64,000 nt of DNA from NCBI GenBank assembly GCA_965223265.1, contig OZ244999.1:1600001-1664000 (forward strand), read 5' to 3'. The translations under genes were made by a program, and so were the position numbers. This DNA comes from Planctomycetota bacterium (GTDB lineage Bacteria; Planctomycetota; UBA8108; SXIK01). The notes beneath the pieces were generated by a model. It made no database searches. It was not told the DNA's origin and worked only from the letters and a program-made list of their open reading frames with translations. Shown piece by piece: positions 16,430 to 41,177 of the stretch (position 1 is its first letter; every line of letters begins with the position of its first letter).

Positions 16430-19400
16430 ATGAATAGCAAACGACTCTCTGATCTCACGCAGTCCCTAGACAAGAAGAAATCACACTCACTGACGAGGTC
16501 CAAGATGAAAGAGCACCTGCGAGGACGCCGGGCAGAGTTGTACTTCACGGCCGTTGGTCTCACGCTTCTGACGGCGCTTTTTGCTGCGTACTTGACCGTA
16601 CGTCAGGTGAAGTCTGCTTCTGCTGTCTACGAGAGTGGCCCGCGGCTCTTTTCTCAGTCGACAAGCGAGGTGGTCCCGGGAGCAAGCCAGCAGGTGCTGG
16701 TGGTTGGAGAGGAAACTCACTTCGGACCAGAAAGCACGATTCACAGCGAAGTAGACGGCGTCTACTTCGACTCGGTCGGGTTTGCCTCGGAGGGCGAACT
16801 CTGGTTCAGCATTTTCGTCACGAGCGAAGCGCAGAGAGCCGAGGGGTCTGAGATCCCGGTGAGCGTGCACTCGCCGAAGCGCGATGGCACGGTGGAGGAG
16901 CTGCCGCTGAGCTTGCGCCTGACCCACCGTGCGGCGCCCCTCGAGCTCGATCTGGTCAATCTACCCGACGACGGCGAAGCTGTCGTGCCGACGGAGCACG
17001 CCATGCTCGGCTACGAGCCTCGCGGCTACGCTCCCTTTCACTTGGAGGTCGTGAATCTCGAGACCGGAGAGACGCAGAGGCAGGAGACACAGCAAAAGCG
17101 TGAGCACTTGGGGGTGCCGCTCGAGCTCGGCGTGAATGCGTTTCAACTCACTCTTCGCGACGCGCTGGGGCGAGAGGTCACAGAAGTCGTCGAGGTCTAT
17201 CGAGAAAGCCCGGAAGCGAAGCAGCTAGCCGCCGCATTCAAGGCTGAAATGGCCTTCATGGCCGACTACACGGGGCAGCCGACTCAGTGGTCCTCGGACC
17301 CAAGCGAGCAGGTGGCGGCGAGTGACTGTGTGCTGGGGAATAGCCTGATCGGCTGCGGCGCCGGTGGTGGCTGCGGCGGAGGAGGCATCTCCGCCCCGCC
17401 AAATGATTACGTCACGAGTCTCGGCGGTGTCGATGTACGCGGCGACGGAGTGCTGCTTCACAACGGGCAGTTCCGCCACGAGGTGGTCGATATGGTCATC
17501 CGCGGCCGTGGGCTCAATTTTACGTTCAAGCGCACGTACCAGAGCGGCAACTACGACAAGCTCGACGGATACCTTGGGGCGGGCTGGGACTTCAACTGGG
17601 GGACTCACTTTCTCAACACCGGAAAATTCTCCCGTGGGGACAATCGACGCGACACCTACAGCAACCTTCAGAAAGTTGGAGGCGAGCAGGTCTTTCAGAC
17701 GCATCCCAAAGGTTACTACGACATCAAAACGTACACGAAGACGAGCGAAATCTTCCAGATCAAACGCAACGGACTCGAGCAGACGTTTGACGAGGCGACG
17801 GGACGCCTGAAAAGTCGCGAGGACCGCTATGGCAACCTATTCACCGCGTCCTACAGCATCGCCGGCAAGATGACGAAGCTCACCGACACGCTTGGGCGTG
17901 AGATCTCGTTCCTTTATCACACCTCGGGCGACGGGCAGGGGCGTCTGCGGAAAGTGGAGGATTTCGATGGTCGTCAAGTAGAGTACGAGTACGCATCAAA
18001 GGGAGGGCGCATCGTCCTGACAAAAGTGAAATACCCGTCGACGTCATGGATCAATGAGTCGGGAAATCCGGTGACTCAAAGTCGTACGAACGAGTACGAG
18101 TATGACAACACCAACGGTCGCCTAACGGCAGTCGTTGACGGGCGAGGGAACACGCGAGTCGACAACGCGTATGATGCCAACGGCCGCGTCACTGCACAAA
18201 CGGTCTACGGCGGCGCGTCTGACTACACGTTCGACTACACCGTGAGCTCTGGAAAAGTCGACGACGTTACCTATGTGACTCCTGAAGGAAACGAGTCGAG
18301 GTTCTATTTCGACTCCTCAGAGCATCTTTCGACGAAGGTCGAAGTTGACTACAAGGCGCTCGGCGCCACCACAACGTCGACGGCGACGACTCTGATCACC
18401 CGCGGATGTGACTGCACCGTGCCAACCGCTGTGCAAGAGCCTGACGACGGCTACACAGAGTGGACGATCGATAGCGATGGCAACGTGACGGAGGTGCTCC
18501 AGTATTTTGACGACCAGAGCCCGTACACGAAAACGGCGGGATCTGACCTCGTGAAAAAGGCCTACCACGCGCCGGTTTCAGACACTGAGTTCGGCGTCAT
18601 GACGAAGTTCGTTGGGCCGATGGCGTTCACCGCAACTCCCGATGAGAACAAGTACGCCATAGAAATTACCTACGACACGAGCGGAAATCCGACTGACATC
18701 ACGAAAGCAGATACAACGAATCCTACTCAAACACTCGTCATCGAAGAGAGGACGTATAACAGCTATGGACAACTGCTCACGGTCTCGGGTGAAGAGGGCA
18801 TGGAAACCAACTATACGTACTTCACGTCCGGAACTCAGGATGGGTACTTGGAAAAAGTCCGTGTGAAATACAGGACCACCGCTTCGTATCTAGAGACCGT
18901 CTTCACATATAACGTCTTTGGTTTTATCGCTTCAAGACGAGATCCAGAAGGGAACTATACGTCTTTCTCTCGAAACGATGAACAAGTCGTTACGATCGTG
19001 ACGTCTCCCTCGCCGTTTTCTTACAAGACGCACACGGATTACAACCTGAACCGGCAGGTGGTCAAGACTGAACTCGAGAACCGCCACGGAACTGGTGCAC
19101 GAATCACCGGTAACGAATATTGGGAAACTGAGTTTCTCTACGACGCAGCGGGAAATCTCACGACACAAAAACGTGAAATTAGCCAATCGGGGGCGACTGT
19201 AACGTGGGCAGAAATCGACCGCGAGTACGACGACGACTACCGGCTCACTCTGGTTCGCGATCCTGAGAACCGTGAGACGAAGTTTGAGCTTGACGAGCGT
19301 GGCCTACCGACCAAGGTGCGACGAGGAAACGGCTCAGCTGACGAGAGCGTTGTCGAGCGGGACTTTGACGTGGACGGTCAGCTTGTAGAAATCACTGAAT

Positions 19401-22294
19401 CGTTTCAGAACCCCGGGAGTGCGACCGTTCACGAGAAGGTTGCGCGACTGGATTACGACGAGTTTGATCGACTGCTTCGAGTCCACGATGGTCCTTCTGG
19501 AGGAGCCGCGGACAACTTTCGCCGTCTCTACTATGACCTTGCGAGTCGGGTGACACTTCAGCGTGAATATGCTGCCGGGGCAACGGAGGGGGTGACTGCG
19601 CCTCTTCGGTCGCGTTCGATGGAGTATGACGAGCGAGGCCGACTTACACAATTGGAGCGGGGCGAAACTCTGTCTGACCAAATAACCTTTGAATTTGACA
19701 GAGCTGATCGATTGACCAAGAGAACGGACGACAACTCCAATGCGACGACGTTCGAATACGATGAAGCAGGAAGGGAGACCAAGAGGATTTTGCCTTCGAT
19801 CAATGGCCTCTCGACAGGTGAGAATTATACGCTTCTCGATTTCGACAAAAACGGAAACGTGACCAAAAGAACGTCTCACCAAGTTCAGACCGTCGCTCCG
19901 TCCTATACGAGCCACGATTTTGTATGGGAGATGACGTACGACGATCTCAATCGTCTCTCAACAGCAACCTTCAACGGTCATGACGGTTCGATTGGATATG
20001 ATCCTGTCTACACAGCAGACACATACGATACTAGGCATCTGTTGATCAAGCACACCAGTGTCGACGATGTTCCAACGGAGTTCGACTACGACGGTCTTGG
20101 CCGGTTAAAGGAGACGCGGGTGAATGCCGGAGGTTCGAGTCCTTCGGAGATAACCTTCGGAGTTGCCTACGACAAGTCCGGAAATGTGACGACGAGAACC
20201 GATGATGATGCAAACGATACCGACTACAGCTATGATGCACAGAATCGTTTAACGAAGATCGAGCATGCTGATGGTGATTGGCAGGAACTTCTGTATAACG
20301 ACCTCGGGAGAGTTGAAGAGCGATCGTACGGTAATGGGGCTTCAGAAAATCACAAAACTGAGCATCACTACAATACCTTGGGGCTCCTCACCAAGAGGTC
20401 GGTGAGCTGGACAACAACTCCGACTTGGCAGGACTACAATGAATACAAGACAACGGATGAGACATTCTCATACGACGGCGTCTATCGTTTGACTGAGGCC
20501 GATGACGACGACACACGAGTCGATATCGTTTACAACGAACTCGATCAGGTGACATCAGAGAAGCTGGACATCAAGGTGTCAGGATCTTGGAAAGGCGTCA
20601 AGACAACTTCCTATACTTGGGATGACACAGGAAGGCAGCTTGAACAGATTGACTACCCGGTTTCGTCCATCAGTTTTGAGTACACGAGCGACGAACTGGA
20701 TCGCATTGAAACAATCACGCATCTCGGTAGCTCTGTCGACCGAAAGATGGTCGAGTATTTCTATGAGGGTCCAGGTTCTCGAGTCATTGAGCGCCACAGA
20801 GCGTTCGACCTTGACGATACCAGCTCAATCAAGCACTTCAATTCTGACTACGAATACGATGCGCTTGCCCGCTTGACGACGATCGATCACAAAGTGAAAT
20901 CTTACACGAGTGGTGGGTCGTCCTCCGAGGCGACGATCCGGGCCTTCGATTCGACATGGGGAGACGGAACGTCTGGAAAGGCTTTTCAGCGATCAAGCTA
21001 TACCATTTCGGATTCTCTTGGGACCTTGGAAGACCACGATTATCTCTACGACAATGCTGGTCGGATGGTTGAAGACAAGCGCAAGATCGGGACCGATCCG
21101 ATCGAGGACTTCGATTACGACATTCAGAGTACGCAGTTCTTCAAGGAGCGGACGAAGGATGACGCTTCTCCTGCCGAAATCTCGTTTGTCAAAGCCACGG
21201 ATGGAAGTCTTCAGGCGACGAGCTACACCGAGGTGTCGACCAAGAATCTTACCTATGATACTGTCGGCAATCTCACATCGGATGTGTCATCCGACTACTA
21301 CTACGATCATGAAAATCGGCTTGTCTTTGCCGATGGGGGAGCCCCGTACTGGTTTCGATATGATGCGCTCGGACGGCTGGTGGAAGAAAACAAGGACGGA
21401 ACGCAGACCCTCTTCTACTACGCGCTGGGGCACATTGTTCAGGAGGTCAATACCTCTGGCGTATTGCAGTGGTTGAATCTCTTCGGCGTTGGAGCGGACG
21501 AGATCGTCTATACGGGGAAGAAGGGGTTTGGGAAGTTGACGACCCACCGGTTCCCTCTAACGAATCACTTGGGGTCAGTCGTGCTTGTTGTGGACGACTC
21601 GAATGTGGTGCAAACGACGGTTTCGTACGATACCGCATACGGTGAGACGACTGTTACAGGCTCTCACAACTATCCGTATGGATTTACTGGGAAACGGTAT
21701 TTTGACGGTGTCGACATCTATCACTACCGTACTCGGGCGTACTATCCGAAGCTTGGCCGATTTTTTCAAAGAAGATCCGAGGTCGCCTGGGAGGACCTAG
21801 GATATTCGTACGCCGAAGGAGATCCAATTAACAATGCTGACCCATCCAACTATATTCCGTTGACAGGGCGATCTAGATCTCGAACACTCGATACTCTTGG
21901 TATTCCTCTCAACAATTTTGGCCCATCCAACGATATCCTGTTGACAGAGCGATCTAGGTTTCGAACACTCGACACTCTTGGTATTCCTCCTAGTCCACCA
22001 GATGATGGATTCTCGCTTCCAAATAATTGCAATCTTGAGACCGTCATTTTTTGGTGCACATCATGTGCGTATTGTCTTAAGCCGCCTCGTAATCCGGCTC
22101 CAGTGTGCAATGGTGCTTGTGCTTCCTGTTTTTACTGTATCGGGAGGAAAGCGATTGACTTTATACCTGAGCTTCCTCCTCGTAAGCCGAAATGTCCAGA
22201 CTTTTGCAATATAGAATGCGATAATTGGGATCCGTGTCTTTGTGGTCCCAGCGATCCATATTATGATGACGTGGAATGTGGACACGATGGGTGA
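16430..22294 (+). CDS. Membrane-anchored RHS/YD-repeat protein with N-terminal Ig-like domains and Cys-rich C-terminal domain
   Basis: Many YD..GRL repeats; FKRTY.S..GYLGAGW (DUF6531-like); core YGFTGKRY..YHYRTRAYYPKLGRF...DPINNADPS; N-terminal TM helix. Confidence 0.93.
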   Translation: MNSKRLSDLTQSLDKKKSHSLTRSKMKEHLRGRRAELYFTAVGLTLLTALFAAYLTVRQVKSASAVYESGPRLFSQSTSEVVPGASQQVLVVGEETHFGPESTIHSEVDGVYFDSVGFASEGELWFSIFVTSEAQRAEGSEIPVSVHSPKRDGTVEELPLSLRLTHRAAPLELDLVNLPDDGEAVVPTEHAMLGYEPRGYAPFHLEVVNLETGETQRQETQQKREHLGVPLELGVNAFQLTLRDALGREVTEVVEVYRESPEAKQLAAAFKAEMAFMADYTGQPTQWSSDPSEQVAASDCVLGNSLIGCGAGGGCGGGGISAPPNDYVTSLGGVDVRGDGVLLHNGQFRHEVVDMVIRGRGLNFTFKRTYQSGNYDKLDGYLGAGWDFNWGTHFLNTGKFSRGDNRRDTYSNLQKVGGEQVFQTHPKGYYDIKTYTKTSEIFQIKRNGLEQTFDEATGRLKSREDRYGNLFTASYSIAGKMTKLTDTLGREISFLYHTSGDGQGRLRKVEDFDGRQVEYEYASKGGRIVLTKVKYPSTSWINESGNPVTQSRTNEYEYDNTNGRLTAVVDGRGNTRVDNAYDANGRVTAQTVYGGASDYTFDYTVSSGKVDDVTYVTPEGNESRFYFDSSEHLSTKVEVDYKALGATTTSTATTLITRGCDCTVPTAVQEPDDGYTEWTIDSDGNVTEVLQYFDDQSPYTKTAGSDLVKKAYHAPVSDTEFGVMTKFVGPMAFTATPDENKYAIEITYDTSGNPTDITKADTTNPTQTLVIEERTYNSYGQLLTVSGEEGMETNYTYFTSGTQDGYLEKVRVKYRTTASYLETVFTYNVFGFIASRRDPEGNYTSFSRNDEQVVTIVTSPSPFSYKTHTDYNLNRQVVKTELENRHGTGARITGNEYWETEFLYDAAGNLTTQKREISQSGATVTWAEIDREYDDDYRLTLVRDPENRETKFELDERGLPTKVRRGNGSADESVVERDFDVDGQLVEITESFQNPGSATVHEKVARLDYDEFDRLLRVHDGPSGGAADNFRRLYYDLASRVTLQREYAAGATEGVTAPLRSRSMEYDERGRLTQLERGETLSDQITFEFDRADRLTKRTDDNSNATTFEYDEAGRETKRILPSINGLSTGENYTLLDFDKNGNVTKRTSHQVQTVAPSYTSHDFVWEMTYDDLNRLSTATFNGHDGSIGYDPVYTADTYDTRHLLIKHTSVDDVPTEFDYDGLGRLKETRVNAGGSSPSEITFGVAYDKSGNVTTRTDDDANDTDYSYDAQNRLTKIEHADGDWQELLYNDLGRVEERSYGNGASENHKTEHHYNTLGLLTKRSVSWTTTPTWQDYNEYKTTDETFSYDGVYRLTEADDDDTRVDIVYNELDQVTSEKLDIKVSGSWKGVKTTSYTWDDTGRQLEQIDYPVSSISFEYTSDELDRIETITHLGSSVDRKMVEYFYEGPGSRVIERHRAFDLDDTSSIKHFNSDYEYDALARLTTIDHKVKSYTSGGSSSEATIRAFDSTWGDGTSGKAFQRSSYTISDSLGTLEDHDYLYDNAGRMVEDKRKIGTDPIEDFDYDIQSTQFFKERTKDDASPAEISFVKATDGSLQATSYTEVSTKNLTYDTVGNLTSDVSSDYYYDHENRLVFADGGAPYWFRYDALGRLVEENKDGTQTLFYYALGHIVQEVNTSGVLQWLNLFGVGADEIVYTGKKGFGKLTTHRFPLTNHLGSVVLVVDDSNVVQTTVSYDTAYGETTVTGSHNYPYGFTGKRYFDGVDIYHYRTRAYYPKLGRFFQRRSEVAWEDLGYSYAEGDPINNADPSNYIPLTGRSRSRTLDTLGIPLNNFGPSNDILLTERSRFRTLDTLGIPPSPPDDGFSLPNNCNLETVIFWCTSCAYCLKPPRNPAPVCNGACASCFYCIGRKAIDFIPELPPRKPKCPDFCNIECDNWDPCLCGPSDPYYDDVECGHDG
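21841..21989 (+). repeat. Imperfect direct repeat (about 68 bp, 81-bp period) at the RHS core/tip junction
   Basis: CCCATCCAAC..TTGACAG.GCGATCTAG..TCGAACACTCGA.ACTCTTGGTATTCCTC at 21841 and 21922. Confidence 0.9.
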
Positions 22295-28516: not shown

Positions 28517-28720
28517 TCAACTCCCCTCTTCGGCCTGCGTGGCTGGTACGCTGCCGGTTGTCGCGGAGCCCTGCTTGAGATCCTTGAGCGTACCAAGCCA
28601 CCGCGCGCTGCTTATCTGAATCCCGAGCTCGTAGAGCTGACCCAAATCCCGTAGGCGCCGGTCAATCGCCTCCGGCGACATATCAACCGTCTTTCTGACT
28701 CGTGTCTTCGTTTCCTTCAA
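28517..28720 (-). CDS. Small helical protein coupled to the nucleotidyltransferase
   Basis: DMSPEAIDRRLRDLGQLYELG; TTG overlaps upstream TGA (alternative start ATG 28681). Confidence 0.55.
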   Translation of the reverse strand: MKETKTRVRKTVDMSPEAIDRRLRDLGQLYELGIQISSARWLGTLKDLKQGSATTGSVPATQAEEGS

Positions 28721-29178
28721 TCTTCTTGACCTTCGAGTTGCTCTATGTCCGCCAAATCCTGCTTGCGGCCAGCCAGGCGCTTCATCCGTACCAGTCCATC
28801 GCGGGACACGGTTCGAATCTGGCGACCCTTCCATTCGAAAACGCCTCGGCCGTTCCAGACTTTCTCGAGACTCGGGCTCACAAGCATGAAGTCAAGCGTC
28901 AGGGTCTCGCTGCCCGAGACTTTCGACACGCGGTGAATGATCTGCTCTTCGGGCCTGCCGAGCCGAAACGGCACTCGCCCTCCTTCAACTGTGAACCCGC
29001 ACTTGGCTGCCACGTTGCGAGCCTTCTCCAGATCTTCCTCCCTAACCAAGAGATCGATATCCTTGGTGAACCGCGGATGCCCGTGAAAGGCAAGCGCCAC
29101 TCCGCCACATAAGGCGTAGTCCAAGCCGGAATCTTCCAGGGCGTTCACGAGTTCCACGAGCTCTTCGTATAGGTTCAT
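28717..29178 (-). CDS. Minimal nucleotidyltransferase (Pol-beta superfamily, AbiEii/DUF6036-like)
   Basis: YALCGGVALAFHGHPRFTKDIDLLV; MKRLAGRKQDLADI. Confidence 0.82.
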   Translation of the reverse strand: MNLYEELVELVNALEDSGLDYALCGGVALAFHGHPRFTKDIDLLVREEDLEKARNVAAKCGFTVEGGRVPFRLGRPEEQIIHRVSKVSGSETLTLDFMLVSPSLEKVWNGRGVFEWKGRQIRTVSRDGLVRMKRLAGRKQDLADIEQLEGQED

Positions 29179-29479
29179 ACAGGACGATGGTCAGTCTTCG
29201 CCAACTCATGTCAGGATGCCGCCGAAAACGAACGAGAATCTCATCCGCTTCTCGGGGACCCGTTCGGTCAGTCGTAGTATTCAGAAGCGATCCCGCCTCG
29301 GTATTCTCCCTTGTCCACCTCAATCAAGTCAACAACCGGCGGTTCTACTGACAGCTCTTCCCGTTGACCCGTATCCACCCGACCCGAGACGCAGAAGGAG
29401 TCCGCGGAGAAGAAGCGAAGACGATACGAGACCTGCGAAACCCGTCCCAGCTTCGTTTTGCGGTGGCGGATTTGTTGTT

Positions 29480-29600
29480 GACGAAGAGGGCCGATTCCCA
29501 TCGGTTCTGCGGGGAGAGCTACTCCGTGCCGTCACGACTGCGCGGCGAGCGACTCCGCACGCGCACCGACCAGGTCAAGATCCCCTGCTACCAGGCGTGA
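29480..29600 (+). pseudogene. Possible IS21 istA fragment
   Basis: Only a short YSVPSRLRGERLR motif. Confidence 0.3.
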
Positions 29601-29630
29601 TCGAACTTCACATGCGCCCACCCACCGCAA

Positions 29631-30443
29631 TCACCCCTCCAGCGGCTGCCACACGAGGATCTCACCCTTCTGCGACACCGCCGCGTCGCCACAATAGTGA
29701 CGATACGATCCGTTCGCCGCGTCGTATGGAATCGCGAAACCCTCGTCTTTGAGCTGTCGCGCATAGAGCCGCAAAAACGTCGGCTCGTAGCTGCAGTCGT
29801 AGGCGAACGTCGGCAGAAGCGGGATCGGCGTCAGCGACACAATCGTGCCGCGCACCATCCAGGCGCCCGTGCGTAGCTCCGCGCCGCCGACGATCAGCGT
29901 GCCGCCCTTCATTTCGAGTCCGGCGAAATCTTTGACGCTGCCCTTGATCGCGATCGTGCCGCGCTTCATGCGCATGCCGACCTCGAGTCCCGCCGAGCCG
30001 CCGATGAGAATCGTTCCGTCCCTCATTCCCGTCAAACTGCCGCGGTACGCCGCGCCCACCTGTCCGCCAGCGTTTCCTGCGACGCGGATCGTCCCGCCCG
30101 ACATCTCACTGCCGACGAAGTCCGACGCGTTCCCCGACACCTCGATCGTCCCGCCCCTCATGTACGCTCCGAGATGCATGCCGGCGTCACCGCTCACCGT
30201 CAACCGCCCGCGCGTCATGCCGCGCCCCAGCCACTTCACCCGACTGACGTCGCCGCGCACCTCGATCTCCTCACTCGCTTCGCCGTCGACATCGAAGAAG
30301 TCTCCGATCGCGCACTGGCGTTTGCCGAGGAACATCGGCAGCTCGTGGATCTCGGCGTTGCTACGGTTCGCCAGCACGTCCGGTGAAATCGCCTCCGCCT
30401 CCAGCGGCACGGTGGGCTGTTCTTTGACGGTCAGAGTGATCAT
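29631..30443 (-). CDS. fwdC: Formylmethanofuran dehydrogenase subunit C (FwdC/FhcC)
   Basis: GXGXG beta-helix repeats, GAAYRGS..GMRDG, LLPTF. Confidence 0.93.
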   Translation of the reverse strand: MITLTVKEQPTVPLEAEAISPDVLANRSNAEIHELPMFLGKRQCAIGDFFDVDGEASEEIEVRGDVSRVKWLGRGMTRGRLTVSGDAGMHLGAYMRGGTIEVSGNASDFVGSEMSGGTIRVAGNAGGQVGAAYRGSLTGMRDGTILIGGSAGLEVGMRMKRGTIAIKGSVKDFAGLEMKGGTLIVGGAELRTGAWMVRGTIVSLTPIPLLPTFAYDCSYEPTFLRLYARQLKDEGFAIPYDAANGSYRHYCGDAAVSQKGEILVWQPLEG

Positions 30444-30491
30444 GTTCAGTCTGTCGATCGGGCCCAGCTTGGAGGTTAACGCTGCACCGCG

Positions 30492-32135
30492 CTACGACGC
30501 TCCGCCACCGCAGTCGCGGATCTCCGCGCCCTCGATCCGTTCCATCTCCACCGGATAGTTCTCAAACGACATCGTGTAGTACTGCTCGAAGAGCGGCCGC
30601 AAGTATTCGCGAATGTTTTCGTCGTGCGACGGTCGCACGACATGCTCGCGCCCGTCGACCACCTTGCGAATGTCACCCTCCTCGACGACCACCTCACCGC
30701 CCTTCAGAACGTAGCGCGGATGCTCAAACATGCGCTGGCGGTCGGCGTCTTCGTTGTAGATCGTCACGTCGCCGTCAGCCCCGACTCCGAGGTGGCCCTT
30801 CGTCGGCATGCCAAGCGCGCGTGCCGGCCCTGCCGACGTGATGATGGCAATCTCCGACAGTGTGTACTCGCGATCGATGTCAGCGAGAACGATGCGGCTC
30901 AGCGCCTTGGGCGGCAGCTCCGCGATACACTCGCGGCGAAAGTCCGCGTTCATCAGCATGTGGATGATCTCAGGATAGCGCCAAAAGCAGGCACCGTTCG
31001 GATGGTCTGTCGTCAAATAGATGCGCCATGGGTCATCGATGAGGAGCAGAAGTTCCAGCCCGACCGCCCACTGCACCGCGTTGACGAGGTTGCTGCCCTT
31101 GTACTTGTACGGCACGATCCCACAGCCAGTTTCGTTCTCGACGTCGAGGTTGCCCCACTTGCGACCGGTCAGCTGGTAGAGAAGGTGCTGCCACGGCCCA
31201 TCCGCCGTGATGGTGACCGCGTCGCCAAAGAGAACCGCGCCCGCATCGGCGGTCAGGTTTTTGTGCGCATTAAAGTACTCCGCCAGCGCCGCCGCCTCCG
31301 AACGCAGCGTGTGCCAATCGTCGCCGCCATAGGCATGGAACTGCAGGTGCGCCATGTGGGCGCGATTCCCTTCGAGCACCTTCATGGTCTCGATCGTTGT
31401 CTTGATATTTCCCGGCGCGCCCAGGTTGTTGCAGTGGAGATGCACTGGATGCGGCAACTGGAGATCGTCGACGATCGACGCCAAGCTCTTGATGATCAGC
31501 GCCGGTGTCACCTTCTTGTAACCTTCCACCGGTTCCGTGAGAACCTTCGCGTCCTTACCCCACTTCCAAGCCGTGACCCCGCCGGGGTTGACCGCTTTGA
31601 CGCCGTAGCCCTTAGCCGACCAGATGTGCCACGCTATGACATCTTTGGCGCGCTCGATCTCGCCTGCTTCCAGCAGGTCGAGCACGATCTCGTTATTCGC
31701 CATGAGGACGCAGCAGGTTTTGTCGACGATCGGCGTGTCGCGTAGTTCTTCGTGCGTGTGCCGCGCGGAAAGTACTGGCACCGCCGCTTCGTTCACCGTC
31801 GTGTAGCCCTGTCCCGCGTAAAGGTAGCCGGTGGCGAACGTCGTCGGCGTCGTCCCGCCGACACCTGCGCGCAGCACGGGGGAGTGGATGAACTTGGCGG
31901 CATTGCGATGGTTCTCCGGCGTCATGGCGCGCGCGAAGTTCAGCGCACCGCCGGCCACATGCGTGTGCACGTCGACGCCGCCGGGGAACACAACCATGCC
32001 CGTCGCGTCGATGTTGCGCGCGCCCGCAGCGTCGAGTTCAGAGACAACGCGCCCACCTGAGATGCAGACGTCTCTCACTTCGCCGTGAATGTCGTTTGCC
32101 GGGTCGTAGACCCTGCCGCCGGTTATGCGCAGCAT
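30492..32135 (-). CDS. fwdA: Formylmethanofuran dehydrogenase subunit A (amidohydrolase)
   Basis: GGVDVHTH, GVKAVNPGG, HLHCNNLG, HLQFHAYG, LTTDHPNG. Confidence 0.95.
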   Translation of the reverse strand: MLRITGGRVYDPANDIHGEVRDVCISGGRVVSELDAAGARNIDATGMVVFPGGVDVHTHVAGGALNFARAMTPENHRNAAKFIHSPVLRAGVGGTTPTTFATGYLYAGQGYTTVNEAAVPVLSARHTHEELRDTPIVDKTCCVLMANNEIVLDLLEAGEIERAKDVIAWHIWSAKGYGVKAVNPGGVTAWKWGKDAKVLTEPVEGYKKVTPALIIKSLASIVDDLQLPHPVHLHCNNLGAPGNIKTTIETMKVLEGNRAHMAHLQFHAYGGDDWHTLRSEAAALAEYFNAHKNLTADAGAVLFGDAVTITADGPWQHLLYQLTGRKWGNLDVENETGCGIVPYKYKGSNLVNAVQWAVGLELLLLIDDPWRIYLTTDHPNGACFWRYPEIIHMLMNADFRRECIAELPPKALSRIVLADIDREYTLSEIAIITSAGPARALGMPTKGHLGVGADGDVTIYNEDADRQRMFEHPRYVLKGGEVVVEEGDIRKVVDGREHVVRPSHDENIREYLRPLFEQYYTMSFENYPVEMERIEGAEIRDCGGGAS

Positions 32136-32184
32136 GCGTGTCGCGTCCGCCTCGTTTCTCTCTGAGTGATCAAACTCGAGCTTG

Positions 32185-32345
32185 ACAGCCCGTTGAAAAA
32201 GTCATTCGGCCGAGAAACTGGCCTCTTCGCGCCCAGCTCGACCGCGTCAATACTCGATAATCCCGAAGATTGCCTGCGTTTGCCGCGGCCGATCTGGACG
32301 CGAAGAGACCAGTTTTCGGCTCGAAGCATTTTTTCAACAGGCTGT
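32185..32345 (-). mobile_element. MITE copy 1 (about 161 bp, palindromic)
   Basis: TIRs ACAGCCTGTTGAAAAA / TTTTTCAACGGGCTGT; near-identical to the copies at 46943 and 55053. Confidence 0.88.
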
Positions 32346-33676
32346 TAAGCGCATGGCACCGTCTTGTACGTCGCCGGCAGCCAAGGCGGCTTCTCTTTCA
32401 CTTTGTCGTAGATCCGTCGCACGATCTCTTCGTCGGTGGGATACGGCGAATCGAGAATCGGCCGTAGCGGCAGCGGAATCTCGTCCATGCGGTAGACCGT
32501 TCCCGGCGCGCTGATGCCCGTGGTGGCGGTCGTGAAGTGAACGCGCGCCAGGTGGCTCGTGTGCGTTACCTTGGGGTCGAGGACGATCGTTGGGATTCTC
32601 GCCAGGTGATCGATCGCCGGCTGCGGCATGGTCGCTCCCGGGTCGGCACCTATGATCAGCGCGGCATCGTTGTCGCCGCGCACGAGCACGTCGATCGTCG
32701 AGAACTCGCCCGGGTTGAAGCGGGGGTAGCCGCGCGACAGGTTGACGCCAAACGGATACCCGGTCGACCAGCGCATGATCACGTCGGCGCCGGTGACGTT
32801 GCCGTGGCCGCGCATCGGCATCGACACGAACTTGGTGAACGCGTTCATCTCGGCGGCGAGCGCTAACGCAGCGGCCGAGTTCATGTGCTTGCCGCGCGTC
32901 ATCGACAGGCCCATGCCGAAGAAGAGAACACCGAAGCGCGCCTTCTTCATACGGTCGACGATTTCCTGCAGCTGCTCAAGTGAAAGGCCCGTCTCCGCCA
33001 CGGCCTCAGCGTCGACGGGCTGGCCCTTGACCAGCGCGCGCATCGTCGTCAGCACCTCGAAGTCTTTCCCCGGTCGCACCTGCAGGAGGATGTCGGCGAA
33101 GCGGCTGCTCAGCGTCTCGCGCACGTCGACGAGCACCATCGTGCGCCCCTTGCGGCCCTCCGGCACGAATTTTCCTTTGGGGGTCAAAGAGTACTTGGTG
33201 AAGTGCCGTGGGTGGCAGTCAGCAGGATTGCCCCCCCAAAAGATCAGGAAGTCCGCCCGGTTCATCACTTCGCCGAGCGTGCAGGTGACTTTGCCACCCA
33301 ACTGGGCGGCGATTTCCGTTGGCCCGTGTCAGAGCGAGGTGTGGCTGTCGACCACGCCTCCGACCAGTTCAGCGAGCGCGACGGCTCCGCGCTGCGTTTC
33401 GCAGGTGGTATTACTGAGGCCGTAGACGAGCGGCATGTTCGCGGCGTAGAGGTACTCCGCCGCAGCGTCGACCGCGTCGTCCACCGACGCCGGCTTGCCG
33501 TCAATCAATGCTTCGGGATAGAGCTTCTCCGCCGTGTGGTTTTTGAACCACGCCTCGCCGAGGCCGCAGGCGCGCTTGGTCTTGGTGATGCGGTCGCCTT
33601 CGGCGTGCAGCTCCATGTCGTCGCACACGCAGCCGCAAAACGTACACGTTGCGTTTTCTACGATCTTTACACTCAT
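32345..33676 (-). CDS. fwdB: Formylmethanofuran dehydrogenase subunit B, predicted selenoprotein (UGA at codon 116)
   Basis: CTFCGCVCDD..C Fe-S motif; VVDSHTSL-TGA-HGPTEIA..TCTLGEV in one frame joining ORFs 33329-33676 and 32345-33301; WGGNP...HPRH; MRGHGNV. Confidence 0.88.
33293..33310 (-). promoter_or_regulatory. Putative bacterial SECIS hairpin
   Basis: GCCGCCC-AGUU-GGGUGGC starting 18 nt after UGA, with GU in the apical loop. Confidence 0.7.
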
Positions 33677-34453
33677 GGCTTCCTAAAAAGTTATCGTCGT
33701 CATCGTCGCGGCGACGACGATGCCGTCTCGCTACGCGGGACTCGTTCGAACGCGCGCAGTCGCGTCGACGAGTTCACTCGAGATAGTGCTCTCGAGCGGT
33801 GATCACTCCGAGTCGTCTGAGCCCAGACTGGGCCGGATGATGAAGCTTCACCCAAGCGCCCGTCCACGAAAGCTGCCGCGGATGCGGCGCGGCATGTAAC
33901 GGCCGACATCGGCGTCGACGAGTTCCCACGCCTGAGGGTCCTCGACGCCGAGCTGGTCGAGCGTCTCGGGAAACTGCGCCTTCTCGACCTCGCTCATTTG
34001 GCGGCGAAGCTCTGGTCTCCCCCGTATGGGGGTGCGTCCTGCGTCCACTGGGATCTTCCTAATCTGTCGTTGTGCTAAACCATTCTGTTGAGGAGCTCAA
34101 GGCTCGTGAGGAGCCAGCGAGCTCACCACATAAGATAACCGAAAGGTCGCTCGACTGGTATGTCCGTGATGACCGGGCGATTCACAACACCAACAATTCG
34201 CTCCCTTCGTTTCTCCGTTGCCTTGTGTTCTATGCCTTCACAGGAGTCGGTTTTCCGTCGATGCGATTTCGAAAGGCGAGAAAACGGAGGAAACCAAGGC
34301 CGGAGACGATCGCCGTCCTTCGCGATCGGACGACAGTTTTAAAACGCCACGGTTGGCGAGGTTTGTTGTCGTAAGTCTCATCCCATCAAGGAAATATGGG
34401 CCGGTGTTCGGGCCCGGGCCAGTCCAAAACCAGCTGCTTTTTGGCAACCGAGC

Positions 34454-34816
34454 TTACTGCGGGGCGTCAATGGCCTCGACTTCGACCTCCCAGCCCTTGG
34501 AGAGCGGCATCCCAGTCCCGTCGGTGCTCTGACCCATGAGCTGGCAAGTCGGCGGGCCGTAGGGCACGAAGATCATGCCGCGCGGCACCTTGCCATCCTT
34601 GCCACCATGTTCCTTGCAGGTGAAGGTGCCCTCGCCGTTCTCGGAGCGCACGCGGAGACTGGCACCCGGCTCGACGCCGAGCTCCTTGATGTCATCCGGG
34701 TGCATGATCAGCGTGGTCACCAAGGCTTGGTACTCGGCGCCTTCCTTACCGACGTTGATCTGTCGCCCTTGCTTGGTCGTGCGACCGGCGTTCATGATGA
34801 AAGTTTTGGCGGCCAA
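34454..34816 (-). CDS. fwdD: FwdD-like molybdopterin dinucleotide-binding subunit
   Basis: GRTTKQG, MHPDD...LG, G.IFVPYGP, TDGTGMP.SKG. Confidence 0.88.
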   Translation of the reverse strand: MAAKTFIMNAGRTTKQGRQINVGKEGAEYQALVTTLIMHPDDIKELGVEPGASLRVRSENGEGTFTCKEHGGKDGKVPRGMIFVPYGPPTCQLMGQSTDGTGMPLSKGWEVEVEAIDAPQ

Positions 34817-34931
34817 CTGAGTCTCTCGCTAGGTGTCAAATCGTGCCCAAATGGTGTCGGTGACAACCAGCGCCAGTGTAACCGCGAAGGCGCAGCACGG
34901 GAATCCCGCGTTTCTCAAGCCGTACGTGGCC

Positions 34932-35885
34932 CTACCTCTTGAGCGCTTCTGGATCCACGACGCCGGACGACCCGGCGCTGAGGACTTTGTGCAGGTGAAA
35001 GTGAAACTTGCCAAGCTTGCCGCCGTAGTTGCCGGCGCCGATGGCGAGAACTCCCTCGCCCGACGCAGTCTCGAGGGCTGTGCGCATGGCCGCGGCGACC
35101 GCCGCTTCGTCCGTGCCATCGATGACGATCTCATAGCAGCAGTTGGCGCCGTCGACGAGCTCGCTCTCGACGCGGCCGCGCTGCGTCGGGCAGAGCGGGT
35201 CGTTGGTCGAGGCCACGAGTCCCTTGTAACGCGAGCCGACCTTGCTGCCGCTGCGGACGACGCCACCGGGGAACGGTGTGATCACGCCGGGCAGCGCAGC
35301 GATCGCTTCGCTGGCGCGCCGCGCTGCGGCGAGTGCGACGGCCTGCGAGCGCGCCTGCAAGATGATGTTGCCACCGGCGATGCCCTTGGCGACCGACGCC
35401 GTCTCACCGACGAGGAATTCGCCATCCATCACTGGGACCCGCCAGTAACGGGTGCCGTCGTGCTTCTTACTCTTTTGATAGCCATCGCCGAAGAAGCGCA
35501 GGTGCTTGCCCAGCGCAATCGTGTCGTGGGATTCTGTCCCGTTGGCGCCGGCCGCGTCACCCAAACCATCGTAGCAGGCGGTGGTGGGGCAGGTCATGAT
35601 GCACTGGCCGACGCGGTTGGGCACCGCTTTGGCGAGCCCGTCGGTCGAAAACCCAAACAGCATCACCGCCGCGCCGGGCCGACCGTCGGGGGTTTCGCCC
35701 GGCGAGAGGTAGCGTTCGACACCCGCCTCGGCGTCGCAGCTGATCACCGACGTCCCATATCCCGCGACGGAGCGGAGCGCCGCCTCAAGCCAGTAGTCGT
35801 CGACAGCGGTGACGATAAGCCGCGCGTAGCGCATGCGAAACGCTTCGGCAAACGTGTCAAGAATCGTGGTCGAGCCGATTTGCAT
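34932..35885 (-). CDS. ftr: Formylmethanofuran-tetrahydromethanopterin formyltransferase (Ftr/FhcD)
   Basis: DTFAEAF, TSVISCDAEAG, TPDGRPG, GQCIMTCPTTA, GSKVGS, YEIVIDG, AGNYGGKLG. Confidence 0.95.
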   Translation of the reverse strand: MQIGSTTILDTFAEAFRMRYARLIVTAVDDYWLEAALRSVAGYGTSVISCDAEAGVERYLSPGETPDGRPGAAVMLFGFSTDGLAKAVPNRVGQCIMTCPTTACYDGLGDAAGANGTESHDTIALGKHLRFFGDGYQKSKKHDGTRYWRVPVMDGEFLVGETASVAKGIAGGNIILQARSQAVALAAARRASEAIAALPGVITPFPGGVVRSGSKVGSRYKGLVASTNDPLCPTQRGRVESELVDGANCCYEIVIDGTDEAAVAAAMRTALETASGEGVLAIGAGNYGGKLGKFHFHLHKVLSAGSSGVVDPEALKR

Positions 35886-36133
35886 AGAGCACTTCCGCAT
35901 TGATCAAGGGCTCACCGCACTTGGCGCCCGCAGCGTCGGAGCAGCTGCGGCGACCGCGAGGTGCGACGTTCGAAGCCTATGAACGTAGCCAGGACCGCGG
36001 TGCGAAGCAACTATTTCCAGGGTTTCGATCGAGGGAGCTGGATCGGCTCGCCGGAGGATGTAGGCGATGCGAATAGCCCGAGTGTGCACCCGCGAAGACG
36101 GCTTCAAGGCTCGTTCTACGTTCGAGTAGTGCG

Positions 36134-39100
36134 CTACTGGCACGCTGCGTTGTCGTCACATTCCGGAACCGGCACGCAAGAGAGCGGAGCTCCCGGGAGA
36201 GAGAGCGGATGAGACTCTCCCGCGTCGGTGAAGAGAAACAGGAGAAGGCCAACACCGTCTGCAAGATCAAGCTCGGAATTCGAGTCATGGTCAAGTAGTG
36301 CGATGTTTCCGGCGGCGTCCACCGACCCATCGCCACATGGGAGTGGCCTCGGGTTGCCTCCGAAGAGGTGCAGGAAGAGGCAGATCGGATCAGAGACGTC
36401 TAGGCCCGCGTTTTGGTCGCAGTCGCCAGGCACTCGAAGTCCACCTTCGCAGTCGTCCGGAATCTCATTCGTGTTCACGTCGGTGGAATCGCCCGCGCCG
36501 ATGTCGCAGGCATCGGGAGCGCCGTTGTCATTGCAGTCGGCCTTGACGAATGGAGCGCTCTCGTTGATCAACAGTGAGACAGTGTCTGATCGATTCGACG
36601 TGGCGATTTCAGGGTAACCGTCGCCGTTGACGTCGAGTTGCACAATCCAGGTAGGTTCCGCGCCAACACCAAACGGGACCGGCGGGGCAAAGCGACCGCT
36701 TCCGTCTCCGAGCATGGCTTCGACAAGATTTGACTCAAGTGAGACGACGAAGATATCCGTATGCCCATCGCCGTCACCGTCAGCGCCGACGGCAGGACGC
36801 GCCGAGCCTGCGCCGTCAGCGAATCCACGAGGGGGAAGGAATCCGCCGTCACTATGGCCGAGCAGAATCGCAGTTCTGGAGCCGGAGCTTCCCCTGGAGA
36901 CGGCGACGTCGAGGATCCCGTCACGGTTGAAATCGGTAGCGAAGAGGTGCCGCGGCGTCGATATAGGACCGAAGATTCTTGGGACTCCGAAGGTCCCGTC
37001 ACCCAGTCCCGGCCACAGACGTATCTCATCGGCATCGCGTTCCGTACTGACCAGGTCGAGGAGGTCGTCGCCGTCGAAGTCGGCGGCGACGAACGCTGTG
37101 GTTTGACTGCTCCGATAGCGAATGCCTTCACGAAAGGATCCGTCTCCAACTCCGAGAAGCACGTTCTCTCCTACTATGAGATCTACTCTCCCGTCATCGT
37201 TGAGGTCGGCCGCCGCGATGTTCAGAGAGATGACTCTGTCCGACGCGAGACTCCGCCGCGAGCCGAATCGGCCGTTCCCAGATCCGAAGTGACCGCTGAC
37301 CGCTGTACTCGGGTGCGTCACCGCGAGATCGATCGCTCCGTCCAGATTGAAATCACCCATCGCAATTCCACTGGGTTTTTGAGCTGTCGGAACTGTCTGG
37401 CTAAACCGAAGTCGATCGACCCCGTCGCTGAGTAGTACCGTTAAATCATGGGAATCGTCGTTCAGCGTCACGACGTCGTCGAACCCGTCGCCGTTGAAGT
37501 CGCCGGCGGCGAGCTTCAGTGGGTCGTCACCGACAGGAAAATCCCTTTGTCGGAACGCAAAACGCCTGTCCGAGAAGTTGCACTCGTCAGGAACTCCGTT
37601 GGTATCACAATCCTCACTCTCACCTGCCAGGATCTCGGCTTGGTCGTCGAACCCGTTGACGTTGCAATCGTTTCGGATTGTTGCGACCACTTCGCATTCG
37701 TCAGGGATGCCGTTTCTATCTGCATCGAGACTATTTCCTGTGGTGACGTCGCACTCATCGGGCGTGTGATTGCCGTTACAGTCGCGACTGCTCGGCTCCG
37801 AGGAGCGATTAACGAACAGCTGTAAACGGCCGCTAGCGGACACGGTTAGCAGCTCCGGTCCGCCGTTGTCGTTGATATCGGAGACAAACAGGCCGACTGG
37901 GCGCCCTTGCGTAGACAGTTCGCCCAGCGACCGAAACGTTCCATCGCCGGCTCCCGTAAACAGTGACACTGAACGGGCAGTCTGATTGACTGTGGCGATG
38001 TCTACCCAGCCGTCTTGATCGACATCAGCGATGGCGCTCAACCGCGGGCGGTCGGCGGTTGTCAAACTCTGGCCGAGTGCGAACCTGCCATCCCCCTCAC
38101 CCAAGGCAACGGTGACCGCGTTCTCCTCGAAACTCGTTGCGATGACATCGAGGCGGCCGTCGTCGTTGACGTCACCAACAGTCAGTGACTGCACCGAGAA
38201 TCGCATTGGGCTGATGAGAGCGCTGTCGAACTCGCCGTTCCCACGGCCGAGGAGCGCGAAAAGAAAGAGAGCGTTCTGATCCTCCGATTCCGCCGTCAAC
38301 AAATCCACGAATCCATCGTCGTTCAAGTCGGCTGCAGCGAGCGCGACCTGGCGATCGCCAAGAGGAATCTGCTGGGTAGACATGAAGTCACCACCTCCGG
38401 ATGCCAAAAGGGTGGTGATTCCAGAATGGTTCAAGATCGCGAGGTCGTCGACGTCGTTGCCATCAAAATTCTCGGCGACGATAGCGAAATGTGGCTCGTC
38501 GACTTCAACGGTGCTGGGATCTGAAAAACCCTCGCCTGCAAGGGACAGGAGGATGTCGACTCGTGCTTCGTTGGGGTAAACGACAGCTATATCAGGCCAC
38601 TCGTCGGAATCGAATCGTCCTAACGCGGCCCACCTTACGTTAGAGATCGCTGTGCGGACGATGGTTGCCTCCGGGAAGTCTCCCGAGCTCTCCTGCTTCA
38701 CGAGCGTCAGGCCGTCCTCCGAATCTGTCATGAGAGCATCAAGATCACCATCGAGATCGATGTCCGCCACCGTCAGCGAGTTCGGCTCATAGCCACCCGG
38801 GAAGCTCCTGGCGTCGTGAAACGACCCTCGGTCTTTGCCTCGATAGAGTGTAACGTCTTCAGAATCTCGGGCGGCGACGATGAAGTCCGCCCAACCGTCA
38901 CCGTCGACGTCCTTCACGACCACACCCAACGCGAATCTCCCGACCGGCAGCCGCACATACTCGCGAAACGTTTCATCCTCGGCGCCTTGAATGAGGATGA
39001 ACTGCTGCGTCACTCGATCCGAGATAGCAAAGTCGACTCGATCGTCGCCGTCGATGTCGATCGGCACCACTTTGTCTGGGTTACCACCAACGTTGAGGAG

Positions 39101-40116: not shown

Positions 40117-41145
40117 TCATGGAGGGCCAGGGGGCGAGTGATCACCACAACCAGTGCCGACTCGTCGTCCCGCCGCCGTCAGGGCGCGCATCAAGTCGGC
40201 GACGCGGCCAGCGTCGATCCCACGCCGACGTTCGCCGTCTGCGCAGGCGGCCCCACGGACGGCGAGGACGTCCGCTCCCAGCTCAACCATTGGCGCTACG
40301 TCCTGTCGTCGTAGCGATCCTGCGAGGGCCACCGCGACGCCATTCGCGTGAGCATGTGCGATGAGGCAACTCAGCTCACGAGTGGTCAAAAAGTCTCGTA
40401 GCGAACCCGTCCCTTTGACGAACGTGTCGATCAAGAAGAACGGTAGCCGACGGCGCACGGCGAAATCGAGAACCTGCTGCGGTGCTGGCGCTTTCGCGGC
40501 TGCGTGGTCGGCGTAGGCTACCGCGACGAGGTTTGCCCCGGAGCCGGCGATGCGTTGATACCATGCGTCGAGACAGGCCATCCACGAGTTCGTCGCGTTG
40601 CACGACGAAAGTCCCAGTTTGTAAAGAGCGACGCCAGCGACTGGAAGGAAGGCCTCGGGCGTTTCACACTCGAGCAGCTCACCGAGAGCCGCAGTCACCA
40701 CGACGCGCCGCGACGATCGGATGGTGTCTCCGTTCTCTATGGTCAGTGCTTTGATGACTTCGGCTTGGACGGCTGACGACGCACGACCGAGAGAGCCATT
40801 TGCAGGTTCTTTGATGTCGACGATCGCAGCACCGCCGTTGAGCGCGATCCGTGCCTCCGCGGCATCTCTGACACTGACGAGCAGTCGAGGCGAAACTCCT
40901 GCGTCGGCTGTCGCTCCACGTCGTCCGTTGCACTCGTTCGCAGGCCCATTGGTTCCGCTCTGCAGTGCCGACTGCTTCGCGCTGCGTTCGCGATTGCGGG
41001 CAAATACGCCGCCATCGGAGGGTTGCTGTGATCGCCTCTCTCTCGGTGCCCCCAGATTATCGTCCTGCCGTTCGGGCGCGCGTCGGAAACGACGCGGATT
41101 CGCCGTCTCAGACGTTGGATGGAGTCGATCGCCATCAGGTATCAT
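40117..41145 (-). CDS. mfnB: (5-formylfuran-3-yl)methyl phosphate synthase (MfnB/Orf22, methanofuran biosynthesis); start uncertain
   Basis: RLLVSVRDAAEA..A..GGA.IVDIKEP..GSLG, VAVAYAD, LIDT..K, ALAGSL, AVRGAAC. Confidence 0.85.
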   Translation of the reverse strand: MIPDGDRLHPTSETANPRRFRRAPERQDDNLGAPRERRSQQPSDGGVFARNRERSAKQSALQSGTNGPANECNGRRGATADAGVSPRLLVSVRDAAEARIALNGGAAIVDIKEPANGSLGRASSAVQAEVIKALTIENGDTIRSSRRVVVTAALGELLECETPEAFLPVAGVALYKLGLSSCNATNSWMACLDAWYQRIAGSGANLVAVAYADHAAAKAPAPQQVLDFAVRRRLPFFLIDTFVKGTGSLRDFLTTRELSCLIAHAHANGVAVALAGSLRRQDVAPMVELGADVLAVRGAACADGERRRGIDAGRVADLMRALTAAGRRVGTGCGDHSPPGPP

Positions 41146-41177
41146 GAACGTCATTCGAAGTGAGAAGACCAAACATC

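Follow-up and report, generated by a model that had tools for sequence, protein, structure and literature searches.

A predicted selenocysteine-dependent formylmethanofuran dehydrogenase operon of a planctomycete encloses a widespread, probable small selenoprotein gene

Introduction

Does a bacterial operon that joins a formyltransferase gene to the genes of a formylmethanofuran dehydrogenase (Fwd) encode a genuine redox enzyme, or a formyltransferase/hydrolase complex (Fhc) of the kind that releases formate in methylotrophs? The question is raised by a 64,000-nucleotide (nt) stretch of DNA from a member of the Planctomycetota (bases 1600001-1664000 of a 9.18-Mb contig, OZ244999.1 of assembly GCA_965223265.1; hereafter the window), in which the genes ftr, fwdD, fwdB, fwdA and fwdC follow one another in this order on the minus strand. 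A first-pass annotation, made from the letters of the sequence, had read these genes as a catalytically complete enzyme dependent on tungsten or molybdenum and had proposed an Fwd/Fhc hybrid, possibly an evolutionary intermediate. We report here that the locus likely encodes a selenocysteine (Sec)-dependent Fwd, and that the spacer between fwdD and fwdB holds a second, small open reading frame (ORF) with its own in-frame UGA, a widespread small selenoprotein gene for which we found no description and which is the real novelty of the locus.

The enzyme form as such is not new, a Sec-type Fwd having already been reported in this phylum. The available text of Kim et al. (2016; PMC4807772) describes a Sec-containing FmdB in fmdD-fmdB-fmdA-fmdC operons of Rhodopirellula sp. 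P2, of a Lake Washington fosmid and of Candidatus Methylomirabilis oxyfera, and the locus studied here is of the same operon type and has the same Sec FmdB. The same text gives no Sec insertion sequence (SECIS) for FmdB and mentions no small ORF, and ftr lies directly upstream in the window, in which respects the two differ; Table S9 of that paper, as far as it is available, does not contain the small ORF and lists FmdB as the sole selenoprotein of the operon. Bacterial FwdB is also listed in the accessible part of Wells et al. (2023; PMC10100899), and an opinion paper states, in the portion consulted, that fwdD is not present in Planctomycetes (Chistoserdova, 2016; PMC5020050).

Results

The B and D subunits are of the Fwd type

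All operon features lie on the minus strand, and coordinates are those of the window. FwdB (32345-33676; 443 residues, with one in-frame Sec codon, TGA at 33329-33331) scored 497.6 bits with the family model TIGR03129 (cut-off 327.8). FwdA (30492-32135; 547 residues), the amidohydrolase subunit that hydrolyses or forms formylmethanofuran (formyl-MFR), scored 705.9 bits with TIGR03121 (cut-off 392.75), and the β-helix scaffold subunit FwdC (29631-30443; 270 residues) 261.2 bits with TIGR03122 (cut-off 130.65). Ftr (34932-35900; 322 residues), the formyl-MFR:tetrahydromethanopterin (H4MPT) formyltransferase and a homologue of FhcD, reached 407.2 bits with NF002554 and 396.3 bits with TIGR03119, both above cut-off. 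FwdD (34454-34816; 120 residues) is a separate subunit that corresponds to domain IV, which caps the pterin, and its presence had been noticed before; it passed the Pfam model Molydop_binding (38.3 bits, cut-off 26.8) and matched solved FwdD chains with 58.9 bits (9sfi_S) and 50.2 bits (5t5i_D). The five genes and their order in the first-pass annotation were thus borne out, but the upstream end given there to the operon, 35885, falls 15 nt short of the ftr ATG at 35900.

Comparison with solved structures placed the B subunit with the archaeal enzymes, since FwdB matched FwdB/FmdB chains with 385 (9sfi_Q), 377 and 369 bits (5t5i_B) and FhcB of Methylorubrum extorquens (6s6y_B) with only 48 bits. 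In the alignment to 5t5i_B, the chain from the tungsten enzyme of Methanothermobacter wolfeii, U116/H117 correspond to Cys118/His119, the arginine of the MRGH motif (R289) to Arg288, and C11, C14, C18 and C37 to the cysteines of the 4Fe-4S cluster, C16 being an additional Cys; the four cluster cysteines are unchanged in 73 of the relatives described below. Hemmann et al. (2019; PMC6926001) list, in the text available, the metal ligand, the His, the Arg, the N-terminal 4Fe-4S domain and FwdD as lost from FhcB, and every one of these features is retained here. On the strength of these alignments, the B/D module belongs to the complete Fwd type and is no cofactor-less FhcB, which upholds the earlier reading of the Fe-S motif, the Sec-His pair and the MRGH arginine.

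FwdA, too, came out nearer to the archaeal subunit, matching archaeal chains with 492 (8rja_A) and 466 bits (5t5i_A) versus 356 bits for FhcA (6s6y_A). Ftr was equally close to archaeal Ftr (280 bits, 1ftr_A) and to FhcD (277 bits, 6s6y_D). The sequence match of FwdC to FhcC (124 bits) covers residues 18-264 and so reaches the C-terminus, whereas with four of five archaeal FwdC chains the match ends near residues 205-213 and with the fifth (9sfi_R) at 229. A model of FwdC built with AlphaFold2 (predicted local distance difference test, pLDDT, 94.4), in which the C-terminus forms one helix and a β-hairpin, fitted 5t5i_C and 6s6y_C equally well (template modelling, TM, scores of 0.87 and 0.88, respectively), and the model was therefore rejected as a discriminator between Fwd and Fhc.

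Set beside the tungsten enzyme FwdABCDFG of M. wolfeii (5T5I; see also 8RJA, 9SFI and 7BKB), the locus encodes homologous A, B, C and D subunits (369-492 bits for A and B) with the ligand pair, Arg288 and the 4Fe-4S cysteines kept and with FwdD as a separate chain. It differs in having Sec in place of Cys118, in the lack of FwdF and FwdG genes, in the co-transcribed ftr and in the extra small Sec-ORF between fwdD and fwdB. The host, unlike M. wolfeii, is a bacterium and probably aerobic. The absence of FwdF/FwdG genes from the window, stated in the first-pass annotation, was borne out: neither the scanned ORFs of the window nor the segments inserted in related operons include a ferredoxin or polyferredoxin gene, the search for ferredoxins having been confined to these. 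With FhcABCD of M. extorquens (6S6Y), as described in the available text (PMC6926001), the locus shares the pathway position after Mch, the linkage of ftr/fhcD to the genes for A, B and C and the homology of the A and C subunits.

Sec-type FwdB forms a single clade that mixes phyla

With one genome scanned per species, at least 599 stretches matched, 517 of which encode a relative; the best 80 of these at least 517, 72-86% identical, are the relatives referred to throughout. Their hosts are Planctomycetota, Acidobacteriota, Gemmatimonadota, Rokubacteria and metagenome-assembled genomes of Alcaligenaceae. The Sec position of fwdB is TGA in 80/80, and fwdD lies upstream of fwdB in 77/80. The position of ftr is less constant: 23 relatives have it upstream and on the same strand, three upstream on the opposite strand and four downstream of fwdC; in 42 it is not in the examined flank, and in eight the flank is too short to judge. 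With 23/80 relatives carrying ftr upstream on the same strand, its linkage to the fwd genes is optional.

In a sample of 151 genomes spread evenly over the phylum, six encode a B subunit above the family cut-off, and only that of the window has the TGA. Among nine non-Sec B genes, three belong to the Cys type and have the MRGH motif intact (58-59% identical), with fwdD adjacent in one. The other six (L229-L234) are degenerate: in three Cys-His is present but the MRGH motif is altered, in one the ligand position is Ser and in one Gly, and one has a deletion there. The degenerate forms are homologous to the window's B subunit at 30-45% identity and mostly keep the N-terminal Cys motif, and they have neither fwdD nor the small ORF adjacent. 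As a side observation, the non-Sec B genes (L226-L234, from genomes G003, G110, G128, G042, G146 and G068) make up a graded series in which the N-terminal Cys motif is mostly kept, and three genomes carry two forms.

A tree of 25 rows, computed with IQ-TREE, comprised the window, the nine non-Sec B genes and 15 Sec loci out of the 80; the other 65 Sec loci were excluded. The 16 Sec rows formed a single clade (support 100/100) that is sister to the Cys forms (100/99), and a branch of 1.63 (100/100) separated the degenerate, FhcB-like planctomycete forms from Sec and Cys FwdB together; bootstrap values were still not fully stable, and the branches leading to the degenerate rows are long. Within the Sec clade the phyla are interleaved, a pattern that suggests horizontal spread. 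We read the Sec-type operon as a fully functional Fwd lineage that has spread horizontally, and not as a half-way form. The idea of an Fwd/Fhc hybrid or evolutionary intermediate is thus not supported: Sec forms group with Cys-type FwdB, at a long distance from the FhcB-like forms, the linkage to ftr is optional, FwdC fits FwdC and FhcC alike, and the Sec operon was already in print, to go by the available text of Kim et al. (PMC4807772).

The fwdB SECIS hairpin (GCCGCCCAGUUGGGUGGC; 33293-33310) begins 18 nt past the TGA and is near-invariant at the nucleotide level in the 80 relatives, third codon positions included, whereas neighbouring codons vary at these positions. Folded alone, the stretch after the fwdB UGA did not give a significant structure (z = -0.57), and a scan of 29000-36500 against Rfam returned no SECIS family for this hairpin or for that of the small ORF, with one sub-threshold chance match. 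In nine Gemmataceae-type loci (L028, L033, L035, L038, L041, L042, L046, L047 and L049), 0.8-1.8 kb of unrelated small ORFs are inserted between fwdB and fwdA. These inserts were considered as sources of electron-partner genes and rejected, as the ORFs are unrelated and, by sequence, toxin-antitoxin- or nuclease-like.

The genome encodes Sec and molybdenum cofactor machinery and a single formyl-MFR enzyme

A tRNA-Sec was found in the genome, together with SelA (548 bits), SelB (324 bits, or 355.8 bits including neighbouring in-frame matches, with its domains confirmed) and SelD (309 bits). The SelD match (G000:C1:3460739-3461653) lies within an open frame of 790 residues, compared with 311 positions in the model, which suggests a fusion protein. 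For the molybdenum cofactor (Moco), the genome encodes MoaA (388.8 bits), MoeA and FdhD (229 bits), and MoeA adjoins a gene for a MobA-like nucleotidyltransferase, which scored 78.6 bits with the MobA model, below the cut-off. With the ligand residues present in the alignment, FwdBD complete, and Moco and Sec genes in the genome, neither of the two findings named beforehand as telling against a complete enzyme, missing pterin-binding residues and missing molybdopterin genes, was obtained.

Mch (378 bits) and two copies of Fae are also encoded in the genome. A tblastn search of the genome with the five operon proteins returned no further copy of Ftr or of FwdA, FwdB, FwdC or FwdD, so that the operon enzyme is the organism's sole formyl-MFR enzyme. 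Two other molybdopterin oxidoreductase genes occur at G000:C1:8399754-8400425 and G000:C1:9125570-9127750; one of the two is a frame of 933 residues with one in-frame TGA, a candidate formate-dehydrogenase-like selenoprotein, and the other encodes a protein with the domains Fe4S4, Molybdopterin and Molydop_binding.

A small ORF with an in-frame UGA lies between fwdD and fwdB

The genes fwdD and fwdB are separated by 780 nt, and within this stretch the first-pass annotation overlooked a small, conserved ORF that has a TGA and a hairpin of its own. The ORF spans 33803-33997, starting at an ATG at 33997 (or at an alternative GTG at 34048), with the Sec TGA at 33848-33850 and, after 14 further codons, the read-through stop at 33803-33805. 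In nearly all relatives the spacer between fwdD and fwdB measures 192-700 nt, and a tblastn search with one gap frame found the small ORF in 79/80; the miss, L020, has no upstream DNA. The conserved block before the TGA reads W-E-x-[IV]-[ED]-x-G-R-[FY]-M-P-R-R-[IV]-R-G-S-x-x-G-R-x-L-G, the core motif G-R-[FY]-M-P-R-R-x-R-G-S-x-x-G-R-x-L-G-U-x-F, and the TGA is followed by x-F-x-[VI]-P and a variable tail of 11-54 residues that is often acidic.

Codon usage on both sides of the TGA sets this codon apart from a stop. It is TGA in 80/80 sequences (the window and 79 loci), unlike the true stops further downstream, which vary (TGA 40, TAG 24, TAA 16), and a stop within 11 codons past the TGA occurs in 0/80 in frame versus 5/80 and 19/80 in the two alternative frames. 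Before the TGA, each invariant residue (Gly, Arg, Pro, Ser or Leu) is encoded by four to six synonymous codons, from which we infer purifying selection at the codon level; past the TGA, the Phe at +2 is invariant (TTC 51, TTT 29) and a hydrophobic residue is conserved at +4. We consider translation of the small ORF through the Sec codon very likely.

The ORF is widespread and has no annotated counterpart. When 1.84 billion representative proteins were searched with a profile, 208 matched, and among the best 150, which were listed, nearly all stop exactly at the residue before the TGA, the exceptions being P0069, P0070 and P0081. P0070 has W at the Sec position (the TGA read as Trp), and P0081 diverges past that point. 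P0069, on a single contig of 1068 bp, has Cys there and is the only Cys form among the matches listed; it keeps the residues downstream of the Cys, a recent change or a sequencing error is possible, and no copy of its DNA turned up in the two contig collections scanned (species genomes and metagenomes). In these collections, DNA encoding the motif with TGA was present in at least 120 species-genome stretches and at least 120 metagenome stretches, and DNA with TGY in none of the genome contigs and none of the metagenome contigs. Of the 120 pattern loci listed, 112 have fwdB directly downstream, and four have no fwdB motif within 908 nt. No match to the small ORF was found in Pfam, in NCBIfam (78 members scanned) or among PDB sequences, and the ESM Atlas gave no usable one; the ORF has one copy in the genome, and databases name its relatives only 'hypothetical protein'. 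A search of the literature returned no printed description, which subscription journals and supplements may nonetheless hold, and the ORF is absent from the operon section and the family-table parts of a 2026 selenoproteome review that were available (PMC13188914).

The small ORF was found next to Sec-type fwdB only, at 79/80 Sec loci and at 0/9 Cys-type or degenerate loci; within 2.5 kb on either side of the nine non-Sec fwdB/fhcB loci (three Cys-type, six degenerate), the best hidden Markov model match had an E-value of 0.84. The possibility that the ORF is a split-off piece of FwdD or of the N-terminal part of FwdB was rejected (hhalign E-values of 0.7 and 0.13).

In the window, the distance from the end of fwdD to the small-ORF Sec codon is 604 nt, compared with a median of 211 nt in the relatives, and the spacer from the fwdD stop to the small-ORF start (33998-34453) is unusually long. 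No convincing ORF was found in this spacer. The 780-nt stretch between fwdD and fwdB has no other copy in the genome, which rules out that the gap is a repeat or mobile element.

A hairpin with compensatory changes follows the small-ORF UGA

A SECIS-like hairpin (33819-33835) with a G+C-rich stem and an RGU-containing apical loop follows the TGA of the small ORF. In the aligned sequences it starts 11-15 nt past the UGA, and G-U is present in the apical loop of nearly all 80. RNAalifold predicted six pairs from these 80 sequences, five of them with compensatory changes; 94.7% of the hairpin cells are paired, and none of 500 shuffles reached the observed covariation. One column pair, for example, is UA in 37 sequences, CG in 35, UG in seven and unpaired in none, and when the 3' partners were shifted by 1-3 columns only 27-49% of the cells could pair. 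Stem and loop resemble the fwdB SECIS in sequence. A palindromic octamer that starts at the GA of the small-ORF TGA (33842-33850; columns 5-12 of alignment A1) also seems to vary in concert, with the form GAACGUUC in most loci, GAAGCUUC in the group of the window and G-U variants elsewhere.

Discussion

The proposed enzyme and the alternatives to it

The locus likely encodes a genuine Sec-dependent Fwd with a tungsten- or molybdenum-bis-pterin site (an FwdABCD core), co-transcribed with Ftr. As we picture the route from the gene content, Fae and Mch would lead to formyl-H4MPT, from which Ftr would make formyl-MFR. FwdA would hydrolyse the latter, the formate would be oxidised to CO2 at the Sec-ligated metal, W or Mo, of FwdBD, and the electrons would exit via the 4Fe-4S cluster of FwdB to an acceptor encoded outside the operon. 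As the sole converter of formyl-MFR, the enzyme would close the H4MPT-linked oxidation of formaldehyde. The genes present, the conserved residues, the Sec and Moco machinery and the lack of a paralogue are observed here; reaction direction, metal and acceptor are inferred. Some observations weigh against this assignment. FwdD reached only 73.5 bits with the archaeal W-FwdD model NF042908, below its cut-off of 175; the related operons share no conserved acceptor gene; and no molybdate/tungstate uptake system was identified in the genome, in which the ModA model scored 38.5 bits against a cut-off of 62.5, its match lying in a tandem SBP_bac_11 protein.

Were the complex instead a formyltransferase/hydrolase of the Fhc type that releases formate, with FwdB serving as a scaffold only, the presence of ftr in the operon, like that of fhcD in methylotrophs, would be accounted for, as would the match of FwdC to FhcC that runs through to the C-terminus and the separate Sec-containing, formate-dehydrogenase-like frame elsewhere in the genome. 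We consider this very unlikely, because every feature that FhcB has lost is kept here and in 80/80 relatives, at the cost of a Sec codon, because the similarity to FhcB itself is so slight, and because the branch that sets the Sec clade apart from the FhcB-like forms is long and fully supported. An enzyme working in the reductive direction, from CO2 to formyl-MFR, and feeding C1 assimilation is improbable too, if less so. Its subunits are as in the CO2-reducing archaeal enzyme, and every step of the Fwd reaction is reversible, but the operon has no gene for an FwdF/FwdG polyferredoxin or another low-potential donor, two Fae copies and Mch are typical of an oxidative formaldehyde route, and the host lineages are mostly aerobic heterotrophs. 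There remains the notion that the in-frame TGAs are ordinary stops, fwdB being split or a pseudogene and the small ORF ending at its TGA. Gene callers do end both products there, yet we give this next to no credence, given that the codon is TGA, never TAA or TAG, in 80/80 at both sites, that the frame is open on both sides, that hairpins lie at SECIS distance from both TGAs and that the Sec machinery is complete.

With the enzyme read as a Sec-dependent Fwd, the formaldehyde oxidation route of many Planctomycetota, Acidobacteriota, Gemmatimonadota and others ends in this Fwd and not in an Fhc hydrolase, and since such an Fwd is redox-active, these bacteria would gain very low-potential electrons from C1 oxidation. 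The result also corrects the 2016 statement, as it stands in the consulted portion of that paper, that Planctomycetes are without fwdD (PMC5020050).

Partner peptide or regulatory leader

For the role of the small ORF our tentative preference, held with some reserve and drawn from sequence features, is that its product of about 65 residues, with a basic core and an acidic tail, acts in trans as a selenopeptide partner of Sec-type FwdBD. Its contribution might be, for example, to maturation, to the protection of the Sec/metal site against redox damage or to the exit of electrons. At three of 79 loci, unrelated ORFs of 1.4-2.1 kb are inserted before fwdB and the small ORF stays next to fwdD, and this retention beside fwdD despite an insert was counted in favour of action in trans. 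So was the structure predicted for the peptide folded alone with its alignment, a putative β-hairpin at pLDDT 84-88 (mean 77.7); the charge of the core is +5. The conservation past the Sec and the four of 120 pattern loci without an fwdB motif within 908 nt point the same way. Weighing against a partner peptide are the near-absence of Cys forms and the confinement to Sec-type fwdB, with no small ORF beside the nine non-Sec loci. The restriction of conservation to the 18-26 residues (about 25) before the UGA, with N-terminus and tail variable, likewise speaks against it, being the pattern that one would expect a regulatory nascent peptide to show. So does the spacing to fwdB, as the read-through stop overlaps the fwdB start in 14/77 loci (in 10 of them as ATGA) and lies within 30 nt of it in 20 more, 34/77 in total.

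These same points speak for the main alternative, which we hold to be somewhat less likely and in which the small UGA-ORF is a cis-acting, selenium-sensing leader, that is, a Sec-codon attenuator and the first of its kind. With Sec-tRNA and SelB available, the UGA would be read through toward the fwdB start, so allowing fwdB to be translated or transcribed; otherwise the ribosome would stop or stall and fwdBAC would be off, the conserved nascent peptide acting in the ribosomal tunnel to tune termination against Sec insertion. A leader would make sense of an obligate UGA, of the restriction to Sec-type fwdB, of the position directly upstream of fwdB in most pattern loci, of the overlapping or closely spaced stops, and of a hairpin close in sequence to the fwdB SECIS, and the conserved residues are the very stretch that would fill the tunnel with the UGA positioned in the A site. 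It sits less well with the large inserts that separate the ORF from fwdB and the loci in which no fwdB motif is nearby, or with distances from the read-through stop to fwdB of up to 256 nt (129 nt in the window). The Phe at +2 and the hydrophobic residue at +4 are conserved past the UGA, the spacer fold is not significant (z = -1.54), and terminators are no more frequent than expected (6 found versus 6.1 expected). We know, moreover, of no leader that uses a Sec codon and of no precedent for a Sec-codon attenuator, which also counts against it. Apart from a partner peptide and a leader, the small ORF may have a dual or some other role.

Known systems offer partial parallels to either role. VhuU, part of the hydrogenase of Methanococcus voltae, has a UxxC motif and corresponds to the C-terminal end of the large subunit, split off as a peptide of its own. 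Like the small ORF it is a very small, separately encoded Sec peptide in a metalloenzyme operon; the small ORF, by comparison, shows no similarity to FwdD or to the N-terminal part of FwdB. TnaC, SecM, the trp leader and the SECIS-like element of Escherichia coli selAB are leader or arrest systems with a short upstream ORF and a critical codon. Leader peptides share with the small ORF a conservation confined to the stretch before the critical codon, and decoding of a scarce aminoacyl-tRNA might act as the signal; they are unrelated to it in sequence. MvhA/VhuA/VhuU is listed in Table 1 of the selenoproteome review cited above, in the part available (PMC13188914). Gene callers cut the small ORF at its UGA, and either role, a Sec-peptide partner of a W/Mo enzyme or a selenium-sensing leader, would give a direct experimental handle on how bacterial selenoenzyme operons are built or regulated. 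If the ORF were a leader, it would be the first Sec-codon attenuator, and fwdBAC would be expressed only when selenium is available.

Neighbouring genes of the window

Beyond the operon, the window has a planctomycete-like gene content, with pairs of PSD1/PSCyt2 and DUF1501 proteins, numerous sulfatases and FG-GAP proteins. A gene for an MfnB-like 4-(hydroxymethyl)-2-furancarboxaldehyde-phosphate synthase, an enzyme of methanofuran biosynthesis, lies at 40117-41172 on the minus strand (PF04476, 168.8 bits); together with a gene for a pyridoxal-phosphate-dependent decarboxylase at 4121-5698 (minus strand) it flanks the region, and both are possible methanofuran biosynthesis genes. An AbiEii-like nucleotidyltransferase is encoded directly downstream of fwdC (28717-29178, minus strand), and an RHS-repeat protein of 1954 residues at 16430-22294 on the plus strand.

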